Source of the DNA: a virus
Taxonomy: Duplodnaviria; Caudoviricetes
Reading direction: 5' to 3' (one strand)
Length of the DNA: 62,421 nt
Virus record (IMG/VR): IMGVR_UViG_3300035665_000031
Location: 1 to 62,421 of that record
Shown: positions 10,073 through 36,532 of the stretch, piece by piece
Numbering within the stretch: position 1 is the first letter of the stretch
Layout: each line of letters begins with the position of its first letter
Made by a program: the position numbers and the translations under genes
Notes under the pieces: model-generated
Told to the model about the DNA's origin: nothing
The model's input: only the letters and a program-made list of their open reading frames with translations
Databases searched by the model: none

Positions 10073-10333
10073 CGTTTTAATTTTTAAAAGTTAATTATCT
10101 TATTGCTTGATGATAAAGGAAAGTTTCACCCAACCTAAATCATTAATTACTGTATGGCACCACACCATCATAAACTGTCATCTTCGAACTAGGTTTGGTA
10201 ACCCACAATGAATAAGCATATCAAGCTTAATTAGTTTTGATTGCTAACCCACCCGCTAAGATAGTTAGCCACACACCAGACTTTACTGGTACTATTATGA
10301 TTTCATTGTTGTTCAAATAAGAACAGTAATTTG

Positions 10334-10420
10334 TTGGGAGGGTCTGAATTGAACAGACGACACATGGGTTTTCATGACTATCGCTAGTCTACCACTGCTC
10401 TACCACTGAGCTACCTCCCA
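10334..10420 (-). tRNA. Atypical tRNA-like RNA with extra hairpin in the anticodon arm (possible GAA anticodon)
   Basis: Acceptor tgggagg/cctccca, canonical D arm and T arm; gacta-gcga-tagtc hairpin inserted before TGAAAA. Confidence 0.65.
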
Positions 10421-11828: not shown

Positions 11829-11902
11829 TGGTGGAGCGTGTCGGAATCGAACCGAAAAATACTTCATTGCAAGTGAAGATTGCTAGCCATCGCATCAGCC
11901 CC
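11829..11902 (-). tRNA. tRNA-Ala(TGC)
   Basis: GGGGC start, cttca-CTTGCAA-tgaag arm, GGTTCGATTCC, encoded CCA; weak D arm. Confidence 0.85.
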
Positions 11903-11930
11903 ATATTTTAATCATATTTTTTTAACTAAC

Positions 11931-12779
11931 TTAAAAACCTAATTTATTATACATTTTAACCCATTTCCTAATAGAATTATCACTGACCCCATATTTTCTA
12001 CCAGTGGCTGAATAACCTAAAACTTCAATATCTTTTATTAATTCTTCATATGATGGTCTTTCAATTTTTCTTTGAGATAAAAAATTATTTTTTTGTTTAT
12101 ATGTTATTCCATTAAGTTCTTTTCTTTCACTATTTAATTTAGTTGAAACTCTAATTTGTTTTGATTTTTGAATTATTATGCCACAATTACCAATTGTTTT
12201 GGATGTACCAATGAAATCTAACAATTCTTTTATTACCAAATCACAATTTTGTAAAACTTGTTTTGCTTCAATTCTATATATGCGCCAATTATTTTTTCTT
12301 AATACTTCATTTTTTTCATTGTCTTTAATTATTCTAGATTCAAGTTTATGTTGTGAACCATCAATTTCAACAGCTACTTTCTCATTTTCAAAAGCAAAAT
12401 CAATAAAATATGGAAAAACAGACCGTTCTCTTATGATTAAAAAATTATTATTTATATTATTTCTAACTAAACCATCCTCAAATAACTTCTCAGGATAACT
12501 CATATTTGATAACCTCCAAGCTGTTTTTTCTGGATTTTCTAACATATATTTTAAACGCTTTTGTTTAAGTGTTTCTTTAACACATCTTATATCACCACAA
12601 GTACTATGAAAAACTAACCCATCTTTATGGTTTACATTTTTACCACAAATACATTTTGGTATTTTAAGATTTTCAAACCGTATCATGTAATCGATTAACT
12701 TACAATTATGATTATAGCTACAATGCCTAGCTAAACCGATATTACCTTTAACGTTTTCATTACAAATTTTACAAACCAT
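11931..12779 (-). CDS. DUF559/Vsr-like endonuclease with Zn-binding N-terminus and C-terminal HTH (probable homing endonuclease)
   Basis: YFIDFAF, VEIDGSQH, WRIYRI motifs; lies inside a tRNA cluster. Confidence 0.8.
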   Translation of the reverse strand: MVCKICNENVKGNIGLARHCSYNHNCKLIDYMIRFENLKIPKCICGKNVNHKDGLVFHSTCGDIRCVKETLKQKRLKYMLENPEKTAWRLSNMSYPEKLFEDGLVRNNINNNFLIIRERSVFPYFIDFAFENEKVAVEIDGSQHKLESRIIKDNEKNEVLRKNNWRIYRIEAKQVLQNCDLVIKELLDFIGTSKTIGNCGIIIQKSKQIRVSTKLNSERKELNGITYKQKNNFLSQRKIERPSYEELIKDIEVLGYSATGRKYGVSDNSIRKWVKMYNKLGF

Positions 12780-12876
12780 ATTTATTGTTTTATTATAAAT
12801 ATGTAATAAAACAATAAACGAACACTTATTTTTCGAATAAGGTTGACGTGCTAAATTTATTTCAAAGAACTACTAG

Positions 12877-12960
12877 TACCCCACATGGGAATCAAACCCA
12901 CTCTATCATTTCTGAATTTTCCTTGAAAGGGAAATCGCTCACTCCTTTGCATTATGGGGC
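12877..12960 (-). tRNA. tRNA-Glu(TTC), enlarged variable region
   Basis: gccccat/gtggggt acceptor, tttcc-CTTTCAA-ggaaa arm. Confidence 0.8.
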
Positions 12961-12965
12961 AAATT

Positions 12966-13045
12966 TGGCGGTCTATCTCGAATTCGAATCGAGCTGTTTG
13001 TACTGCGTGACAGGCAGACGGACACTCCCAGCATCCCCATAGACC
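12966..13045 (-). tRNA. tRNA-Asp(GTC)
   Basis: ggtctat/atagacc acceptor, ctgc-CTGTCAC-gcag arm, GCCA end. Confidence 0.85.
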
Positions 13046-13053
13046 ATATTTTG

Positions 13054-13126
13054 TGCGATGAGAGGGACTTGAACCCCCAACGCCAGCTTCTTCGGAGCTG
13101 CGCTCTACCAATTGAGCTACCAACGC
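13054..13126 (-). tRNA. tRNA-Phe(GAA)
   Basis: Canonical D and T arms, cagct-CCGAAGA-agctg arm. Confidence 0.85.
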
Positions 13127-13134
13127 ATATAAAC

Positions 13135-13163
13135 AAAAAAAGTCCTGATTTTTGGTCAGGACT
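13135..13163 (-). terminator. Attenuator-like terminator ahead of tRNA cluster 1
   Basis: agtcctga/tcaggact stem followed by U run, about 8 nt before tRNA-Phe. Confidence 0.8.
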
Positions 13164-13190: not shown

Positions 13191-13280
13191 TTAACTTTTG
13201 ACAATAGTTGACCATCCGAAGATATAATCATCTTCAGCCGCAAAAAACGCACGTTCAAATATGTTGTTAACTGTTCTCAT
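13191..13280 (-). CDS. Leader peptide 1 (MRTVNNIFERAFFAAEDDYIFGWSTIVKS)
   Basis: Hand translation; between promoter and terminator; enriched in F/E/A/D, matching downstream tRNAs. Confidence 0.75.
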   Translation of the reverse strand: MRTVNNIFERAFFAAEDDYIFGWSTIVKS

Positions 13281-13304
13281 TTCTTTTTGTTTAATAAATA
13301 TATG

Positions 13305-13312
13305 CAAAGATA
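13305..13312 (-). promoter_or_regulatory. Bacteroidota-type -7 box (TATCTTTG) for leader 1 and tRNA cluster
   Basis: Matches TAnnTTTG; same context at 36322-36329. Confidence 0.7.
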
Positions 13313-13423
13313 CATATTATTTTCGATATGACAACACATATCTCATATTTATTTTATATAGTATTGATTATCAACTGATTATTTTTAATATATGATATGA
13401 AATATCGTATATATTACTAATAT

Positions 13424-13489
13424 ATGTTGTATATACGATATAATTTGTTGGGTATGCGATAAGAAATTACGCATATAAGTAAGTTATGT
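13424..13489 (+). mobile_element. attI-like site heading array 2
   Basis: Two TGTTG-ATA-CGATA direct repeats then ATAAGTAAGTTAT; conserved at 28027 and 36441. Confidence 0.75.
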
Positions 13490-19152: not shown

Positions 19153-20169
19153 TTATATCTTATTTGTGCTGTATCTTTTATTTTTAATTTCATCATATGA
19201 TAATCCATTCATTTCAGCTAGGATAGCTAAGCCAATCAACTTATATAAGCTAAACACAGTAGTGTTTTTAGAAAACAAATAATTGGCATCGGTAGAGTGA
19301 GTATAAATGGAATCTGATACAATTATTTCGCTTATACTTTTCTTATTTAGTTTATTAAAAACATCCCCAGAAAAAACAGCGTGACTACCAATAACGATAA
19401 CTGATGATGCCCCCATTTCCATCATTAAATCAGAAGCTAATCCTATTGTACCACCAGTATCAATAATATCGTCAATAATAATAACCCGTTTATCTTTGAC
19501 ATCACCAATAAGTGTCATCTTATCTATTTGATTTGGGCCACTTCTTTCCTTATCAACTGTAACGTAAGATAAATTAATATCATGATATTTGGATAAATAA
19601 TCTCTCATTTGTTTAACCCTCTTTGAACCACCAGCGTCTGGTGTTGCAAGGATTGTATTAATATTATCATGCTTGATTAACTTGGCTATATAATCACCAA
19701 ATAAATTCTTCCCTTCAATATGGGTGATTGGAATATCGACAAACCCCTCCAATTGTTGAGCATGTAAGTCGAATAATATCATGTCTGTTGCACCCAAATT
19801 TTCAATTATCTTAAGGATTACCTTGGAACCAATTGGACCTCGTTTATCATCCTTCTTATCTTGCCTAGAAAATGGCATATAAGGCATTACAACAATAATC
19901 TTTTCGGCATTTGCTCTAACACAAGCATCAATTGAAAAATACAACCTATGTAGCTTCTCAGAATCATTTGGGGTGGTCAATAAGAATACTCTTTTGCCTC
20001 TAACTGATGAGGTAAAGTCAACACTAAATTCTTTGTCTGAATAATGTGGTGATTTCATTTCACCAAATTGTAAATTTGCGAATTCATTGGTTCGTAAATA
20101 ATTTAATATTGAGTCAACAAACCCATCTTTTTTGTTTCTATTTTCTAAGTCGAAAATGATTGATTCCAT
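19153..20169 (-). CDS. prs: Ribose-phosphate pyrophosphokinase family protein
   Basis: PYMPFSRQDK, DLHAQQ, PDAGG, IIDDIIDTGGT. Confidence 0.9.
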   Translation of the reverse strand: MESIIFDLENRNKKDGFVDSILNYLRTNEFANLQFGEMKSPHYSDKEFSVDFTSSVRGKRVFLLTTPNDSEKLHRLYFSIDACVRANAEKIIVVMPYMPFSRQDKKDDKRGPIGSKVILKIIENLGATDMILFDLHAQQLEGFVDIPITHIEGKNLFGDYIAKLIKHDNINTILATPDAGGSKRVKQMRDYLSKYHDINLSYVTVDKERSGPNQIDKMTLIGDVKDKRVIIIDDIIDTGGTIGLASDLMMEMGASSVIVIGSHAVFSGDVFNKLNKKSISEIIVSDSIYTHSTDANYLFSKNTTVFSLYKLIGLAILAEMNGLSYDEIKNKRYSTNKI

Positions 20170-22309: not shown

Positions 22310-22560
22310 TATTCTATTGTATATTCAGTTATTTTTGTTATTGGTTTTGGTGATACAACACAACCTTTTATAATCAATACACCATCACCCCAATAGTTCG
22401 TATCATTTTCTTTTGGTAATTTATCAAAAACTTCACGACCAGCCCCATAATACCCATCATTTATGCGTATTAAAAGTTCTTCTTTATTTATGGCTTCAAC
22501 ATTTGTGTCACCATCTGAATTTGTTATTACAAAGTAAGTTTCCATATTAGTTGTTTTCAT
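22309..22560 (-). CDS. Hypothetical protein
   Basis: ORF track, translationally coupled. Confidence 0.7.
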   Translation of the reverse strand: MKTTNMETYFVITNSDGDTNVEAINKEELLIRINDGYYGAGREVFDKLPKENDTNYWGDGVLIIKGCVVSPKPITKITEYTIE

Positions 22561-24188
22561 TAGTAGTTATTTAAATCTTTACTGGGTGCGTACTTCTTAA
22601 GTAGATTACGTCTTTCAGTTATAATTGCTTGTGATGCTGGATAATTATGATTTGTGTCACTATATAAATTCAGTGGCATATTATCCATCTGTTCTCTAAT
22701 ACGTGCCCTAATGGTAGGGAAATCATCATCCTGAGCAATACCAAATGGCTTATTTATACGCAAACCATTAAAGTATTCAACCAAGGCATTTGGGCCAACT
22801 TCATAATCAAAAATAATTGTTCTTTTTGATTCTAAGGCTTCTGGTGTTCTGAGTAGTTTAAAAGGACCACATAAGGTTGTCTTGCCAAGTGTTTCTGAAA
22901 ACTTAACAACACCTTGATGGTCATAACCCATAGCATTCAATGCATATTTGGCTGAAATCATATCTCTACTCAATCCATTTCTTAACCCACCACCTGAACC
23001 AAACAACCCCCAAGCATAAAATGCAAAGTCTTCAGCAATCAATGCATCCATAATTTCAAGCATAACATCAAATGTCATTCCATCACCTTCAATAAATCTA
23101 AGTGATGTTGGAAACTTCCAAGTCTTTCCATCAATTTTTTGATATGATACTAACCCAGCTTTTACTGCTTCTCTAACAATAAACATAACTTCTTCCAATG
23201 GGTTTCCAGAATCTGGTCTAGCTACAACTATCTTTCCATTGGCTTCTTTTATTGAACGTAGGGCTAATGGAATTAAATGTTTAATTACAGCATTCTTGGA
23301 ATCGTAACAATCATCAACCATTGATAGTATTGAATCATCTGGCGATTCGTTATAAAGTGTTTCATAACAATCACCTTCAAACTCATATGATTGAACGTTA
23401 CGGTGAGCTAAGGCGTAAACGGATGCTGCGACAAATGTTTCACCAGCATTTTTCCATGCTTGATATGCACCTGATGTTGTATCAGTATTTGGGAAAGTAT
23501 ATAAATGAACCATTCCAAGTTCTTCGGATTCTTGTTCGGTCATACCAGCCCTATCCCCAAAATCGGTAAGAATCAACGAAGCTGATAAATTTAAATCTTC
23601 ATCACTTATATTTGGGTTAACTAGTTTTATTTTTTCCTTTACCTTTTTATAAAAATGTTCATTCTGAGTAACCCTAGCTGAAGTTGACCAAACTTGCAAT
23701 AGTTTTGATTCGAACCAAGCGGATAATTCACCCTTATGTTTTGATTGAGACCAGATTTGTAGGGCTGGTTCATTTGGATAAACAACACTTCCTTCTGGAA
23801 GTCCTTCAATAAGAATTGGTGGTCTACCATTAAAATGGTCTACAACATCTCTCCACATTTGTTCATCAAACTCATACCTGGCTAACCCTTTGTTTGTTGC
23901 TCTAAAATTAGCTAAGAACCTTTTGGTTTCATCAATTTCCTCATGTGTAATTGGGTCATAGAATAACCTTTCTAATATTCGTTGAATACCAGTAAAAATA
24001 ATTCTATGGTCATCAGCATCATATAACTTAGGGTTTACTGAATGTAGTATACGTCTAAATGTAACGTAATAAACTGATTTATCTTTGGCTAATGTACTTT
24101 GAAATTGACCACTACCTATTGTATAGGCATCAACCAACAATCGTGGTGTCTTAAAAATTTTTCTTTTGGGTAATATTACTTCTGACAT
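22560..24188 (-). CDS. Nicotinamide phosphoribosyltransferase family protein
   Basis: DAY, LPEGS, DFGDR, RPDSG, IEGDG, FGSGGGL motifs. Confidence 0.88.
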   Translation of the reverse strand: MSEVILPKRKIFKTPRLLVDAYTIGSGQFQSTLAKDKSVYYVTFRRILHSVNPKLYDADDHRIIFTGIQRILERLFYDPITHEEIDETKRFLANFRATNKGLARYEFDEQMWRDVVDHFNGRPPILIEGLPEGSVVYPNEPALQIWSQSKHKGELSAWFESKLLQVWSTSARVTQNEHFYKKVKEKIKLVNPNISDEDLNLSASLILTDFGDRAGMTEQESEELGMVHLYTFPNTDTTSGAYQAWKNAGETFVAASVYALAHRNVQSYEFEGDCYETLYNESPDDSILSMVDDCYDSKNAVIKHLIPLALRSIKEANGKIVVARPDSGNPLEEVMFIVREAVKAGLVSYQKIDGKTWKFPTSLRFIEGDGMTFDVMLEIMDALIAEDFAFYAWGLFGSGGGLRNGLSRDMISAKYALNAMGYDHQGVVKFSETLGKTTLCGPFKLLRTPEALESKRTIIFDYEVGPNALVEYFNGLRINKPFGIAQDDDFPTIRARIREQMDNMPLNLYSDTNHNYPASQAIITERRNLLKKYAPSKDLNNY

Positions 24189-34817: not shown

Positions 34818-35555
34818 TTAATCATCTAAATATTTTTGAATATTATCTTCATAAGATTTAACCCATTTTCTTATTGCGTTATCACTAACACCATATTTTC
34901 TACTAAGTGAAAGATAACTATTATTTTTTAAATCATTAATTAATTCTTCATATGTTGGTCTATTAACTCTACGTTGTTTTAATGCTCTATCAATTTCTTT
35001 TTGTGTTTGAACTCTAGGTTGTTTAATTAATGGAGGTAGGTTTTTATTTAACTCAATTAATTTTAATTTATTCTGATGAATTTTAGTGTTCTTCCCACAA
35101 TAATTATGGGTTAATGCGTGACAATTAGGACATAATATTTGTATATTTTTTAAATTATTATCAAATCTATCACCATTTATGTGGTGTAATTCTAGTGGTA
35201 TTGGTTTATCAGCCCAAATATATAATTTGCAATTCTCACATTTATGTTCTTTATAACCCTCTCTAATTAAACGAATTCGTAAATTATTTGATGAAATATA
35301 TTTAACTTTATTTGTTAAAATATCTTCCATTTTAATTCTAAAATTAAATGTCTCTTTTCTACCCAACTTGGTTCCGAGTGACCATTTATGTCCAAGAAAA
35401 TGTGATATGTCTATATTAAATGATTTCAATCTTTTCTTTAAAGTCATAAAATTACTACCACATATAACTATATTTAGTTTACGACAAACATCAGATATTG
35501 TTTTTGAATCACTAACCGCTTTTTTTAATTCTTCTTCTGTAAATTTATATTTCAT
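34818..35555 (-). CDS. HNH endonuclease with C-terminal HTH (probable homing endonuclease)
   Basis: CENC, LELHHINGD, NIQILCPNCH; directly after tRNA-Leu. Confidence 0.9.
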   Translation of the reverse strand: MKYKFTEEELKKAVSDSKTISDVCRKLNIVICGSNFMTLKKRLKSFNIDISHFLGHKWSLGTKLGRKETFNFRIKMEDILTNKVKYISSNNLRIRLIREGYKEHKCENCKLYIWADKPIPLELHHINGDRFDNNLKNIQILCPNCHALTHNYCGKNTKIHQNKLKLIELNKNLPPLIKQPRVQTQKEIDRALKQRRVNRPTYEELINDLKNNSYLSLSRKYGVSDNAIRKWVKSYEDNIQKYLDD

Positions 35556-35559
35556 ATTG

Positions 35560-35632
35560 TACTCTTAGAGAGATTCGAACTCTCAAACACGGGTTCTAAA
35601 GCCGTGACGGTTACCAATTACGTCATAAGAGC
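35560..35632 (-). tRNA. tRNA-Leu(TAG), no long variable arm
   Basis: gctctta/taagagt acceptor, TTTAGAA loop, gagag-TTCGAAT-ctctc. Confidence 0.75.
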
Positions 35633-35682
35633 ATGTTAATCTGTCCAACCATTACATCAGACGGATTTTTATTTATTAAAGG

Positions 35683-35771
35683 TGGGCCTTGAGGGGGTCG
35701 AACCCTCACCCTACTATTACTTCAGAACACTGTTTAAGAGTGTCGTGTACTGCCAATTTCACCAAAGGCCC
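35683..35771 (-). tRNA. tRNA-Leu(TAA)
   Basis: gggcctt/aaggccc acceptor, acact-CTTAAAC-agtgt arm, long variable region. Confidence 0.88.
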
Positions 35772-35780
35772 ATTTTATCT

Positions 35781-35984
35781 TTACACCAAAAAATGTCTCA
35801 ATTTTGAATTATTCATTTCTTTTTGTTCTTTTATTTTTGTGGTTAATTCATCAATAATATTAGTATAGAGTTCTTCTCTATCACTATTGATATTTTTCTC
35901 ACACTCTGGGTGTAAGGTATAGATTTTATCTACCACCTTAACCAGCCCAGTTATTTCTTTATTGCAATATTCACACGTAAACAT
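35781..35984 (-). CDS. Small Zn-binding hypothetical protein within tRNA cluster
   Basis: CEYC...HPEC. Confidence 0.6.
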   Translation of the reverse strand: MFTCEYCNKEITGLVKVVDKIYTLHPECEKNINSDREELYTNIIDELTTKIKEQKEMNNSKLRHFLV

Positions 35985-36000
35985 AATTTCTTTTTTTTAG

Positions 36001-36073
36001 TACCGCTAAATGGAATCCAACCATTGTATCTACTTTGTAAGAGTAGTGTTCTGAAGCACTGAACTATAGCGGC
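36001..36073 (-). tRNA. tRNA-Val(TAC), divergent D and T loops
   Basis: gccgcta/tagcggt acceptor, ctact-CTTACAA-agtag arm. Confidence 0.75.
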
Positions 36074-36090
36074 ATATTTTTTATTTCCAG

Positions 36091-36161
36091 AGCGTGGTGA
36101 TGGACTCAAACCATCATACCATGTTTTGCAGACATGTCCCTAATCTTTCGGGCAACCAGGC
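36091..36161 (-). tRNA. tRNA-Cys(GCA)
   Basis: catgt-CTGCAAA-acatg arm, U73 discriminator. Confidence 0.82.
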
Positions 36162-36169
36162 TTATAATG

Positions 36170-36205
36170 AAAAAACCCTCAGATTTTTAACGTCTGAGGG
36201 TTTTT
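36170..36205 (-). terminator. Attenuator-like terminator ahead of tRNA cluster 2
   Basis: aaaaaccctcaga/tctgagggttttt stem with U run, about 8 nt before tRNA-Cys. Confidence 0.8.
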
Positions 36206-36225
36206 AAATATTCTTTAAAGTTAAT

Positions 36226-36297
36226 TTAAACGCACAGACAACCATTACCTAATAATAGGCATAACACTAGGACTAATATGTTGTTTGATGTTCTCAT
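36226..36297 (-). CDS. Leader peptide 2 (MRTSNNILVLVLCLLLGNGCLCV)
   Basis: Hand translation; 13 of last 16 codons are Leu/Val/Cys, matching downstream tRNAs. Confidence 0.75.
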   Translation of the reverse strand: MRTSNNILVLVLCLLLGNGCLCV

Positions 36298-36506
36298 TTC
36301 TTTTTGTTTAATAAATATATGCAAAGATACTACTTATTTATGATATAGCAATACTTTATTTATATTTATTTCTTATTTTGTTGATTATCAACTGATTATT
36401 TTTAATATATGATATGAAATATCGTATATATTACTAATAAATGTTGTATATGCGATATAAATTGTTGGATATACGATATGAATTATCGTCAATAAGTAAG
36501 TTATAA
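36275..36506. repeat. About 230-bp duplicated module (leader start, promoter, attI-like site), second copy near 13259-13489
   Basis: Long identical blocks, e.g. tgttctcatttctttttgtttaataaatatatgcaaagatac and ttgattatcaactgattatttttaatatatgatatgaaatatcgtatatattactaata. Confidence 0.9.
36441..36506 (+). mobile_element. attI-like site heading array 4
   Basis: Same direct repeats and AATAAGTAAGTTAT core as 13424 and 28027. Confidence 0.75.
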
Positions 36507-36532
36507 GTAATATTATTTTTGTTTTGAATTAG

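Follow-up and report, generated by a model that had tools for sequence, protein, structure and literature searches.

Leader-peptide attenuators control the amino-acid operons trp, his, phe, leu, thr and ilv, of which thr senses Thr and Ile, and ilv senses Ile, Leu and Val. In the pheST operon of E. coli, which encodes phenylalanyl-tRNA synthetase, attenuation by the pheM leader acts on a synthetase and one amino acid is sensed. T-box riboswitches bind uncharged tRNA directly, without translation. Here we describe a locus in a 62,421-base stretch of viral DNA (IMG/VR record IMGVR_UViG_3300035665_000031, hereafter the window), in which a 23-codon open reading frame (ORF) rich in Leu, Val and Cys codons, termed leader 2, is followed by an intrinsic terminator and then by tRNA genes for Cys, Val and Leu. 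Judging from its sequence and that of its relatives, we consider it likely, with good confidence, that this locus is a three-element, ribosome-mediated transcription attenuator that gates a phage tRNA cluster.

All elements of the locus lie on the minus strand. A putative Bacteroidota-type promoter (36315..36351), read from the sequence, has a -33-like element at approximately 36351-36349 and a -7 box at 36329-36322. The promoter-like blocks of the window seem to be of this Bacteroidota type; a sigma-70 promoter scan is not applicable to this promoter type. Leader 2 (36226..36297; 23 codons plus TAA) was recognized by ORF reading and a composition test. Its codons 8-16 (36250..36276) are nine Leu, Val or Cys codons in succession and form the proposed regulatory run, on the basis of the codon list and its enrichment. 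For the leader as a whole, the tally given in the original prediction (TTA four times, CTA twice, CTG once, three Val and three Cys codons) proved exact. The proposed antiterminator strand (36228..36240), put forward from duplex energies and arm preference, is an imperfect copy of the 3' arm of the terminator; it runs through the final four sense codons into the stop codon, of which it takes in the first base, and would thus be covered by a ribosome standing there.

The terminator (36170..36205; hairpin scan) consists of an A tract, a stem (36200-36176) and a T tract (36175-36170). It has an 8-bp stem, a 9-nt loop and six T residues (-11.4 kcal/mol), and is placed 25 nt past the stop codon of the leader and 9 nt before tRNA-Cys. 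The automated terminator scan showed this hairpin on the plus strand alone because its loop limit is 8. Flanked as it is by an A tract and a T tract, the hairpin could by sequence terminate transcription in both directions. Beyond it lie tRNA-Cys(GCA) (36090..36161; Rfam 45.6 bits), tRNA-Val(UAC) (36000..36073; 64.6 bits), tRNA-Leu(UAA) (35681..35771; 50.3 bits) and tRNA-Leu(UAG) (35559..35632; 51.1 bits), with a Cys-rich, zinc-ribbon-like ORF of 67 residues from the ORF list (35781..35984) between the tRNAs. ARAGORN, Rfam and the hairpin scan together confirmed the terminator and the order of the four tRNAs behind it as originally described. An HNH endonuclease gene (PHROG 10822, E 2e-44; 34818-35555, minus strand) starts 4 bases past tRNA-Leu(UAG), and read-through of the attenuator would therefore transcribe this gene too.

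Past the start that it shares with a paralogue in the window, Cys, Val and Leu account for 13 of the 16 residues of leader 2, and for 15.6% of those in the 62 long minus-strand ORFs of the window (binomial P = 1.1e-8). None of 12,915 16-residue segments of the long ORFs contained 13 such residues, and one of 46,144 did so in all six frames. Similarly, the Cys/Val/Leu fraction of the whole peptide was reached by one of 410 small ORFs. Both the single six-frame segment and the single small ORF are presumably leader 2 itself. These counts bear on a different explanation of the locus, in which leader 2 encodes a short hydrophobic peptide of the membrane, or what is left of a signal peptide, its wealth of Leu, Val and Cys is plain hydrophobicity that by coincidence precedes tRNAs for these residues, and the terminator is constitutive or leaky. 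Leader 2 is hydrophobic, Leu is the commonest residue (9%), and by our estimate an open frame of 16 further codons after a duplicated start is not improbable in DNA of 30% G+C (about 0.26). Set against this is that the composition was reached by so few of the small ORFs of the window. A secreted or lipoprotein signal peptide was rejected, as the ORF ends at 23 codons and is followed by the terminator, with no mature protein.

The paralogue, leader 1, is part of a second cassette that shares a duplicated module with the first. Pairwise alignment showed that this module (36275..36504, minus strand), which takes in a block of short recurring motifs on its upstream side, the promoter, the 5' untranslated region (UTR) and the first 7.7 leader codons, aligns at high identity with 13487-13258 over approximately 230 bases (36504-36275; alignment columns 57 to 286), with sharp divergence inside codon 8; the first seven codons are common to both leaders. 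The claim that the two have the same promoter and start was borne out by an identical 39-base string at 36289-36327 and 13272-13310 (0 expected by chance), which extends from the -7 region of the promoter through the 5' UTR to the third codon. The module reaches about 175 bases upstream of the promoter (36330-36504 and 13313-13487, minus strand), where there are short repeated and inverted motifs like the -7 region. By their sequence, these upstream blocks could be decayed tandem promoters or regulator binding sites.

Leader 1 (13191..13280, minus strand; 29 codons), recognized by ORF reading, composition and homologues, is rich in Phe, Ala, Glu and Asp. A terminator (13135..13162; hairpin scan) comes next, and then tRNAs identified with ARAGORN and Rfam (11832..13126), all on the same strand. 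These are tRNA-Phe(GAA) (13053-13126; ARAGORN, Rfam 54.7 bits), an 80-nt tRNA-Asp(GUC) (12966-13045; ARAGORN only, no Rfam match), a Glu(UUC)-like tRNA whose extra arm is long (12877-12960; Rfam 30.7 bits) and, about 1 kb on and separated from the Glu-like tRNA by a 282-residue ORF, an Ala(UGC)-like tRNA that is marginal and has a poor acceptor stem (11832-11902; 27.6 bits, under the cut-off of 29). Leader 2 takes 0 of its 22 residues from Phe, Asp and Glu, and leader 1 takes 2 of 28 from Cys, Val and Leu. Taken alone, the match of leader 1 to its own set is modest: 8 of 22 divergent residues (P=0.035), or 11 of 22 when Ala is counted (P=0.004). An 88-nt Val(GAC) tRNA (50.4 bits) at 10333-10420 (minus strand) lies behind a 58-residue ORF, without leader or terminator.

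Homologues of both leaders were found at other loci, which are designated here by L-numbers and derive from pattern scans of metagenomes and IMG/VR, from matches to the A1 protein described below, and from named phages. The promoter block of the window recurs ahead of leader homologues in L109, L113 and L135, and the part of the module upstream of it is shorter and different in all three. In L109, a metagenome contig found by pattern scan, a 30-codon leader has 14 of 29 residues in its own tRNA set. Alignment with leader 2 showed that the promoter block, the start and several codons are held in common, and that the remainder has diverged and is again rich in Val, Leu and Cys. Downstream there are a different terminator, a small Cys-rich ORF and tRNAs Cys(GCA), Val(AAC), Leu(UAA), Met(CAU), Val(UAC), Leu(UAG) and Leu(AAG). 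A CTT codon and, at the end, a Met codon are present in the L109 leader, and Leu(AAG) and Met(CAU) in its array, while the window has none of these four, although this is a single anecdote. L135, from IMG/VR, has a near-identical promoter block, a 26-codon leader rich in Leu, Val and Cys, a third distinct terminator, and then tRNA-Cys, Val and Val before the contig ends.

Leader 1 has homologues in L113, L108, L109 and L110, and in eight further distinct IMG/VR leaders. All are rich in Phe, Asp, Glu and Ala, and all precede combinations of Phe, Glu, Asp and Ala tRNAs; this includes each of the eight distinct leader-1-type IMG/VR leaders that have a tRNA within 450 nt. The presence of Ala tRNAs behind these homologues accounts for the three Ala codons of leader 1 and for the marginal Ala tRNA of the window. 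In L113 there is also a third cassette, whose leader lies behind the common promoter block, has many Gly, Thr, Gln, Pro and Lys residues and is followed by a terminator and, at the contig end, tRNA-Pro.

The window is a complete assembly, a single contig with a G+C content of 29.7%, and its minus strand carries nearly all of the long ORFs. It encodes a relative of the A1 DNA-transfer protein of phage T5 (PHROG 1745, E 6e-139), a SbcC-like nuclease and NAD-salvage enzymes, and from this gene content it is therefore taken to be all or part of a phage genome. The NAD-salvage pair, homologues of ribose-phosphate pyrophosphokinase and nicotinamide phosphoribosyltransferase, is encoded at 19153-20169 and 22560-24188 (minus strand). 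The region has no DNA relatives among 50,697 phage records, save for one tRNA-Leu match; the exact 36-base string of promoter plus start does not occur in IMG/VR, and a neighbouring protein of 318 residues has no relative there. The top tblastn matches of the A1 relative were to Maribacter phage Panino (44% identity) and to Flavobacterium elemoviruses (42%). In the elemovirus we found one doubtful tRNA and no leader, and among 80 IMG/VR loci fetched through the A1 protein, 10 had a tRNA within the fetched flanks. No leaders were seen when L037 and L050 were read by eye.

Other types of leader were present in Panino. Directly after the A1 gene of this phage, a promoter block, a 26-codon leader and a terminator precede tRNAs for Pro, Glu, Gln, His, Leu, Leu and Arg, and codons 4-13 of the leader all come from its own tRNA set. 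In the second Panino cassette, a 24-codon leader and a terminator precede tRNAs for Ala, Lys, Ile and Gly. In cassettes of this second type (L001 26186-26335; L130, between the Arg and Ala tRNAs; L083 2487-2633), a hydrophobic ORF of 44-49 residues lies between promoter and leader, which would make the leader the second ORF of the transcript.

Cellulophaga phage phi38:1 has three cassettes, each behind an identical repeated promoter block. The first array encodes tRNAs for Lys, Ile, Gly, Met, Asp, Thr, Val, Arg and Ile, the second for Tyr, Ser, Ser, Asn, Trp, Phe and Cys (codons 7-22 of its leader are all in this set), and the third for Pro, Glu, Gln, His, Leu and Arg. In the GenBank record of this phage, two of the leaders are annotated as longer hypothetical-protein ORFs (gp066 and gp070), and several tRNAs that ARAGORN detects at a relaxed threshold are omitted. 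RNA libraries (five runs from two studies) contain most of the phi38:1 tRNA region. RNA contigs from four runs cover this region, continue from leader across terminator to tRNAs and are interrupted at the repeated promoter blocks; they may include DNA carry-over, do not reveal transcript ends, levels or single transcripts, and are given no weight on either side. In the Pro-Glu-Gln-His-Leu-Leu-Arg cassettes (L001 25321-26129; L083 5412-6217; L089; L130), the order of the leader residues is approximately the reverse of that of the tRNA genes, and in phi38:1, past the first four codons, the next six spell out the first six tRNAs in exactly reversed order. The other types show no evident order of this kind, and it may be coincidence.

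IMG/VR contigs with the shared promoter-start pattern supplied further leaders of these types and a new one, L107, in which a 15-codon Ser/Leu/Tyr/Thr leader precedes tRNAs for Leu, Leu, Ser and Tyr. The same locus has, at 1140-1212 behind a promoter-like block, a tRNA with a CUA (amber-reading) anticodon, which ARAGORN calls Pyl (Rfam 67.4 bits). A contig binned with a Lacinutrix metagenome-assembled genome added three more leaders. Several candidates were discarded: L111 and L112, metagenome matches without tRNAs, were chance matches, as was the sole match of one IMG/VR pattern scan, and 14 of 16 matches in the genome-contig scan were ordinary genes behind a similar promoter. Together, these comparisons support the extension of the finding to a putative family of attenuators, carried by Flavobacteriia phages and by uncultured relatives of these, that would govern tRNA arrays.

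The diversity of these leaders also bears on the possibility that leader 2 is a membrane peptide. Small membrane ORFs (49 and 44 residues) do adjoin cassettes in Panino and L130. Nevertheless, five other leader types are non-hydrophobic (those listed are Gln/Glu/His/Pro/Arg, Ser/Asn/Tyr/Trp/Cys, Ala/Lys/Ile/Gly and Phe/Asp/Glu/Ala) and yet each matches its own tRNA set, and the two homologues of leader 2 have kept its composition and its tRNA set, not its sequence. We therefore regard a membrane or signal-peptide role, with a terminator indifferent to it, as extremely improbable.

For a quantitative comparison of leaders with tRNA sets, the leader was defined by coordinates as the ORF starting after the promoter. 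A rule that took the longest ORF was discarded, as in several cassettes it picked either an ORF extended in frame through the promoter or a membrane ORF nearby. The table of 14 non-redundant cassettes leaves out L084 (an IMG/VR copy of phi38:1), L088 (identical to L086), L103 (Calle, near-identical to phi38:1), the leader-1 copies of L108 and L109 (identical to L113), L093, and the third L113 leader, of which the contig holds only the first tRNA. An extended set of 18 adds L093, L127 and two L130 cassettes; the eight IMG/VR leader-1-type leaders, L135 and L183 stood outside the permutation tests. In the 14 cassettes, the fraction of leader residues (start Met excluded) belonging to the leader's own set was 0.29-0.75.

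When the pairing of leaders with tRNA sets was shuffled, the observed match was reached in 0 of 200,000 permutations with 14 cassettes and in 0 of 200,000 with 18. With one representative per set type, the true pairing was alone among 720 in reaching the observed match in two choices of six representatives, and in each choice five of the six leaders fitted their own set best. In 13 of the 14 cassettes the leader contains all of the amino acids served by its array (0 of 200,000 permutations); the remaining one, L100, falls short through a "Pro(CGG)" called at a relaxed threshold, at the position that Tyr occupies in the similar array of L086. Within a leader type, the order of residues varies and the composition is kept. 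As controls, we used terminator-before-tRNA sites outside the cassettes, where matches in ORFs were 0/39, 1/56, 2/28, 5/31, 6/34 and 2/32; the last of these (L113 4973) is the third L113 leader at the contig end, with tRNA-Pro alone visible, and is not a true outside control. The composition match is conserved, and it co-varies with the tRNA set across phages. It had been argued from the two window paralogs that chance was an unlikely source of leaders matching different tRNA sets, and the permutations, which were the proposed check, upheld this for six set types at the level of amino acids.

At the level of synonymous codons the outcome was different. The original prediction had the leader retuned to the Leu, Val and Cys tRNAs, with its Leu codons being those read by the two encoded isoacceptors. 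All seven Leu codons are indeed readable by these isoacceptors, but so are 86% of the Leu codons in the genes of the window, and retuning holds for amino acids and not for synonymous codons, which fit no better than ordinary usage would have them. By strict wobble rules, 159 of 185 leader codons match encoded anticodons across the cassettes, against 151.4 expected from the codon usage of the phages, and 11 of 13 do so in leader 2, against 10.2 expected. CTA and CTG make up three of the seven Leu codons of leader 2, against 10% in genes (P about 0.03, an estimate), which is a hint that leader 2 probes both Leu isoacceptors.

A second line of evidence came from the RNA pairings. All 14 cassettes have an intrinsic terminator 23-55 nt past the stop codon of the leader, and the leader segment that pairs most strongly with the terminator 5' arm falls in the final third of the ORF in every cassette but L107, in which it is just past the ORF. 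The pairing of the 3' part of the leader with the terminator 5' arm was better than 95% of shuffles in 11 of the 14. When every leader was paired with each of the 14 arms and row and column means were removed, the preference for the own arm was equalled in 0 of 200,000 permutations, and the own arm was the best partner for nine of the 14 leaders, including leader 2. Thus antiterminator and terminator co-vary. The clearest compensatory case is that of L113 and L110, where a two-base exchange in the leader is mirrored in both arms of the terminator, and the terminators of the three leader-2-type cassettes are unrelated to one another, each being matched by a copy of its own further upstream. Among these three, the antiterminator duplex is -15.7 kcal/mol in L109 against -8.5 in the window, and L135 has a clean 7-bp pairing (by eye). 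Folds of the antiterminator without the ribosome-covered part gave -8.0 kcal/mol for leader 2, -19.0 for L109, -16.2 for leader 1 and -24.2 for L113. Homologues, the other leader types and this co-variation all support the view that the window contains paralogous leader-peptide attenuators, each matched to its own tRNA set.

On this basis we propose a mechanism, in which we infer the translation of the leader, the coupling of stalling to read-through, the formation of the terminator when the ribosome runs on, the direction of the response and its trigger. Transcription would start at the Bacteroidota-type promoter and the 23-codon leader would be translated at once. With charged Leu, Val and Cys tRNAs plentiful, the ribosome would pass codons 8-16 and reach the stop codon, where it would sit on the antiterminator strand (36240-36228) or between that strand and the terminator; the terminator hairpin would then form, and transcription would end 9 bases upstream of tRNA-Cys. 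If any of these aminoacyl-tRNAs were scarce, the ribosome would stall in the Leu/Val/Cys run, the free antiterminator strand would pair with the terminator 5' arm, and RNA polymerase would read into tRNA-Cys, Val, Leu, Leu and beyond. The net effect would be negative feedback, such that slow reading of the codons that a tRNA sub-array serves would bring about its synthesis, and the paralogue at 13280 would exert the same control over the Phe, Asp, Glu and Ala tRNAs. The scarcity might arise from a poorly fitting host tRNA pool, from loss of tRNAs during infection, or from a tRNA-cleaving defence. Because related phages repeat the design with other amino-acid sets, the leaders look like sensors of tRNA shortage. 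We lean, with rather less assurance than for the window locus itself, towards the wider view that phages of Flavobacteriia run an on-demand tRNA supply, in which sub-arrays lie behind composite leaders and would be transcribed only when their own codons decode slowly.

Several observations weigh against the attenuator interpretation. The independent lineages number, as far as sequence homology indicates, about six and not 18, since cassettes of the same type are homologous. In the eroded cassettes L093 and L127, which were counted among the 18, own-set residues are just 2/30 and 3/29; both keep a leader of the Ser/Asn/Phe/Trp/Tyr/Cys type and its terminator, with one detectable tRNA (Phe or Tyr) behind it, which points to recent loss of the array or to a different role of the leader in these two contigs. 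The array of L183 includes Pro and Gln tRNAs that are not represented in its leader. The shared seven-residue start motif opens 36 short IMG/VR ORFs, and for 23 of these there is no tRNA within 450 nt. Several of the tRNA-less ORFs (L136-L139, L144, L145, L152, L161, L163, L174, L179, L180, L185, L193 and others) are found repeatedly, in many contigs; perhaps the start module serves these phages as a general expression cassette, or other genes have some of these ORFs as their leaders. Codon tuning beyond ordinary usage, given the amino acid, was not found across the cassettes, and Val(UAC) strictly reads one of the three Val codons of leader 2. As for the pairings, the best duplex of leader 2 (-8.5 kcal/mol) has p=0.09, and the antiterminator of leader 1 is indistinguishable from shuffles (p=0.62). 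The originally proposed pairing of the leader end with the terminator 5' arm was found by RNAfold, but it is weak (-8.0 kcal/mol, z -0.36, with 58 of 200 shuffles as good), and at -8.0 to -8.5 kcal/mol the window antiterminator would compete with a terminator stem of -11.4.

Two further points in the same direction concern the logic of the device. An upstream partner of the antiterminator strand at p<0.05, as an anti-antiterminator (1:2) or pause pairing would have, was found in none of the 14 cassettes, and a hairpin inside the coding part of leader 2 overlaps the strand by only about two bases. The design would therefore have three elements and not four, and an untranslated RNA would read through, unlike in trp-type attenuators. 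In addition, the antiterminator strand of several cassettes lies 19-42 nt before the stop codon, where a ribosome at the stop would not cover it. For a strand beyond the footprint of the terminating ribosome, timing or topological separation by the ribosome would have to act.

The weakness of the window antiterminator, the weakest of the three leader-2-type cassettes, could mean that leader 2 is a decayed relic of a real attenuator family, with constitutive termination or fixed read-through, and several of the tRNAs behind leader 1 are marginal, as decay would have it. The leader 2 ORF and its terminator are intact, however, its composition bias is the strongest of all, all four of its tRNAs score well, and of the 14 arms its best partner is its own. 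A relic thus seems very unlikely to us.

A rather less remote alternative accepts that the match between leader and tRNA set has been selected and places the read-out elsewhere, in precursor processing or stability, in Rho access, or in an inverted logic whereby smooth translation leads to read-through. The want of a fourth element or pause hairpin, the many strands beyond the footprint of a ribosome at the stop, and the weak antiterminator of the window are all compatible with it, and the phi38:1 RNA contigs, which run from leader through terminator to tRNAs, would fit leaky termination (these contigs are not single transcripts and DNA carry-over is possible). On the other side, every cassette has a canonical terminator at the same short distance past the stop codon, together with a co-varying upstream copy of its 3' arm. 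That copy is a prediction of antitermination, and because the other read-outs do not need it, it counts against them. We consider such a read-out unlikely and retain the three-element attenuator as the preferred interpretation.

If the interpretation is correct, these would be the first example of leader-peptide attenuation of tRNA genes and the first attenuators to sense up to eight amino acids together. Attenuation would then extend to RNA genes, to phages and to composite multi-amino-acid sensing, and the cassettes would be compact, portable sensors of the availability of specific tRNAs. Phages would monitor translational capacity codon by codon, with feedback correction, which speaks to the open questions of why phages carry tRNAs and how tRNA levels are set. 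The leaders would also label which tRNAs belong to each unit, including non-canonical ones missed by finders; a leader would predict the identity of odd tRNAs such as the Glu-like and Ala-like ones behind leader 1 and the unannotated ones of phi38:1. As phi38:1 is culturable and RNA-seq data exist for it, the idea is directly testable. In the full-text literature, subscription journals and supplements aside, we found no report of leader-peptide attenuation of tRNA genes or of phage tRNA arrays. The accessible text of the phi38:1 RNA-seq paper (PMC5335546) does not contain the word "leader" and has "attenuation" only in the title of a reference, and passages of PMC3082878 and PMC2965389 do not concern tRNA genes.

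Among phage tRNA regions, that of coliphage T5 offers a partial likeness, in that its tRNAs are interspersed with small ORFs and homing endonucleases (HNH) and the window encodes an A1 relative; the HNH gene behind the window tRNAs echoes those endonucleases. By eye, none of 12 small ORFs beside T5 tRNAs matched in composition, and the T5 record differs in having promoters annotated within the tRNA region and only two terminators, at the ends of the stretch examined. T-box riboswitches are similar in that they sense the state of a specific tRNA and choose between terminator and antiterminator in a leader. No T-box matched in the window at Rfam thresholds, or in 36150-36520 at E up to 10, and at gathering thresholds the only Rfam matches in the whole window were tRNAs.

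The amino-acid operon attenuators are closer in architecture, with a promoter-proximal ORF rich in regulatory codons, a terminator before the first gene, and an alternative pairing over the terminator 5' arm. The Rfam models His_leader (RF00514) and Phe_leader (RF01859) align end to end with 36167-36292, far below threshold (27.9 vs 49 and 23.1 vs 55 bits). Among the classical attenuators, the multi-amino-acid leaders of thr and ilv are the nearest. The cassettes described here differ from all of these in that up to eight amino acids are listed, one for nearly every tRNA of the array, no 1:2 anti-antiterminator was found, and the setting is phage-borne with promoter contexts of Bacteroidota type. 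They differ also in their targets, which are tRNA genes and not biosynthetic enzymes, the first genes past the terminator neither making nor charging an amino acid. The pheM leader shares with them the attenuation of a translation-apparatus gene that serves the sensed codons, a homeostat for decoding capacity. The difference from pheM is that here the product is a tRNA itself, and the sensed molecule and the product would therefore be the same species.

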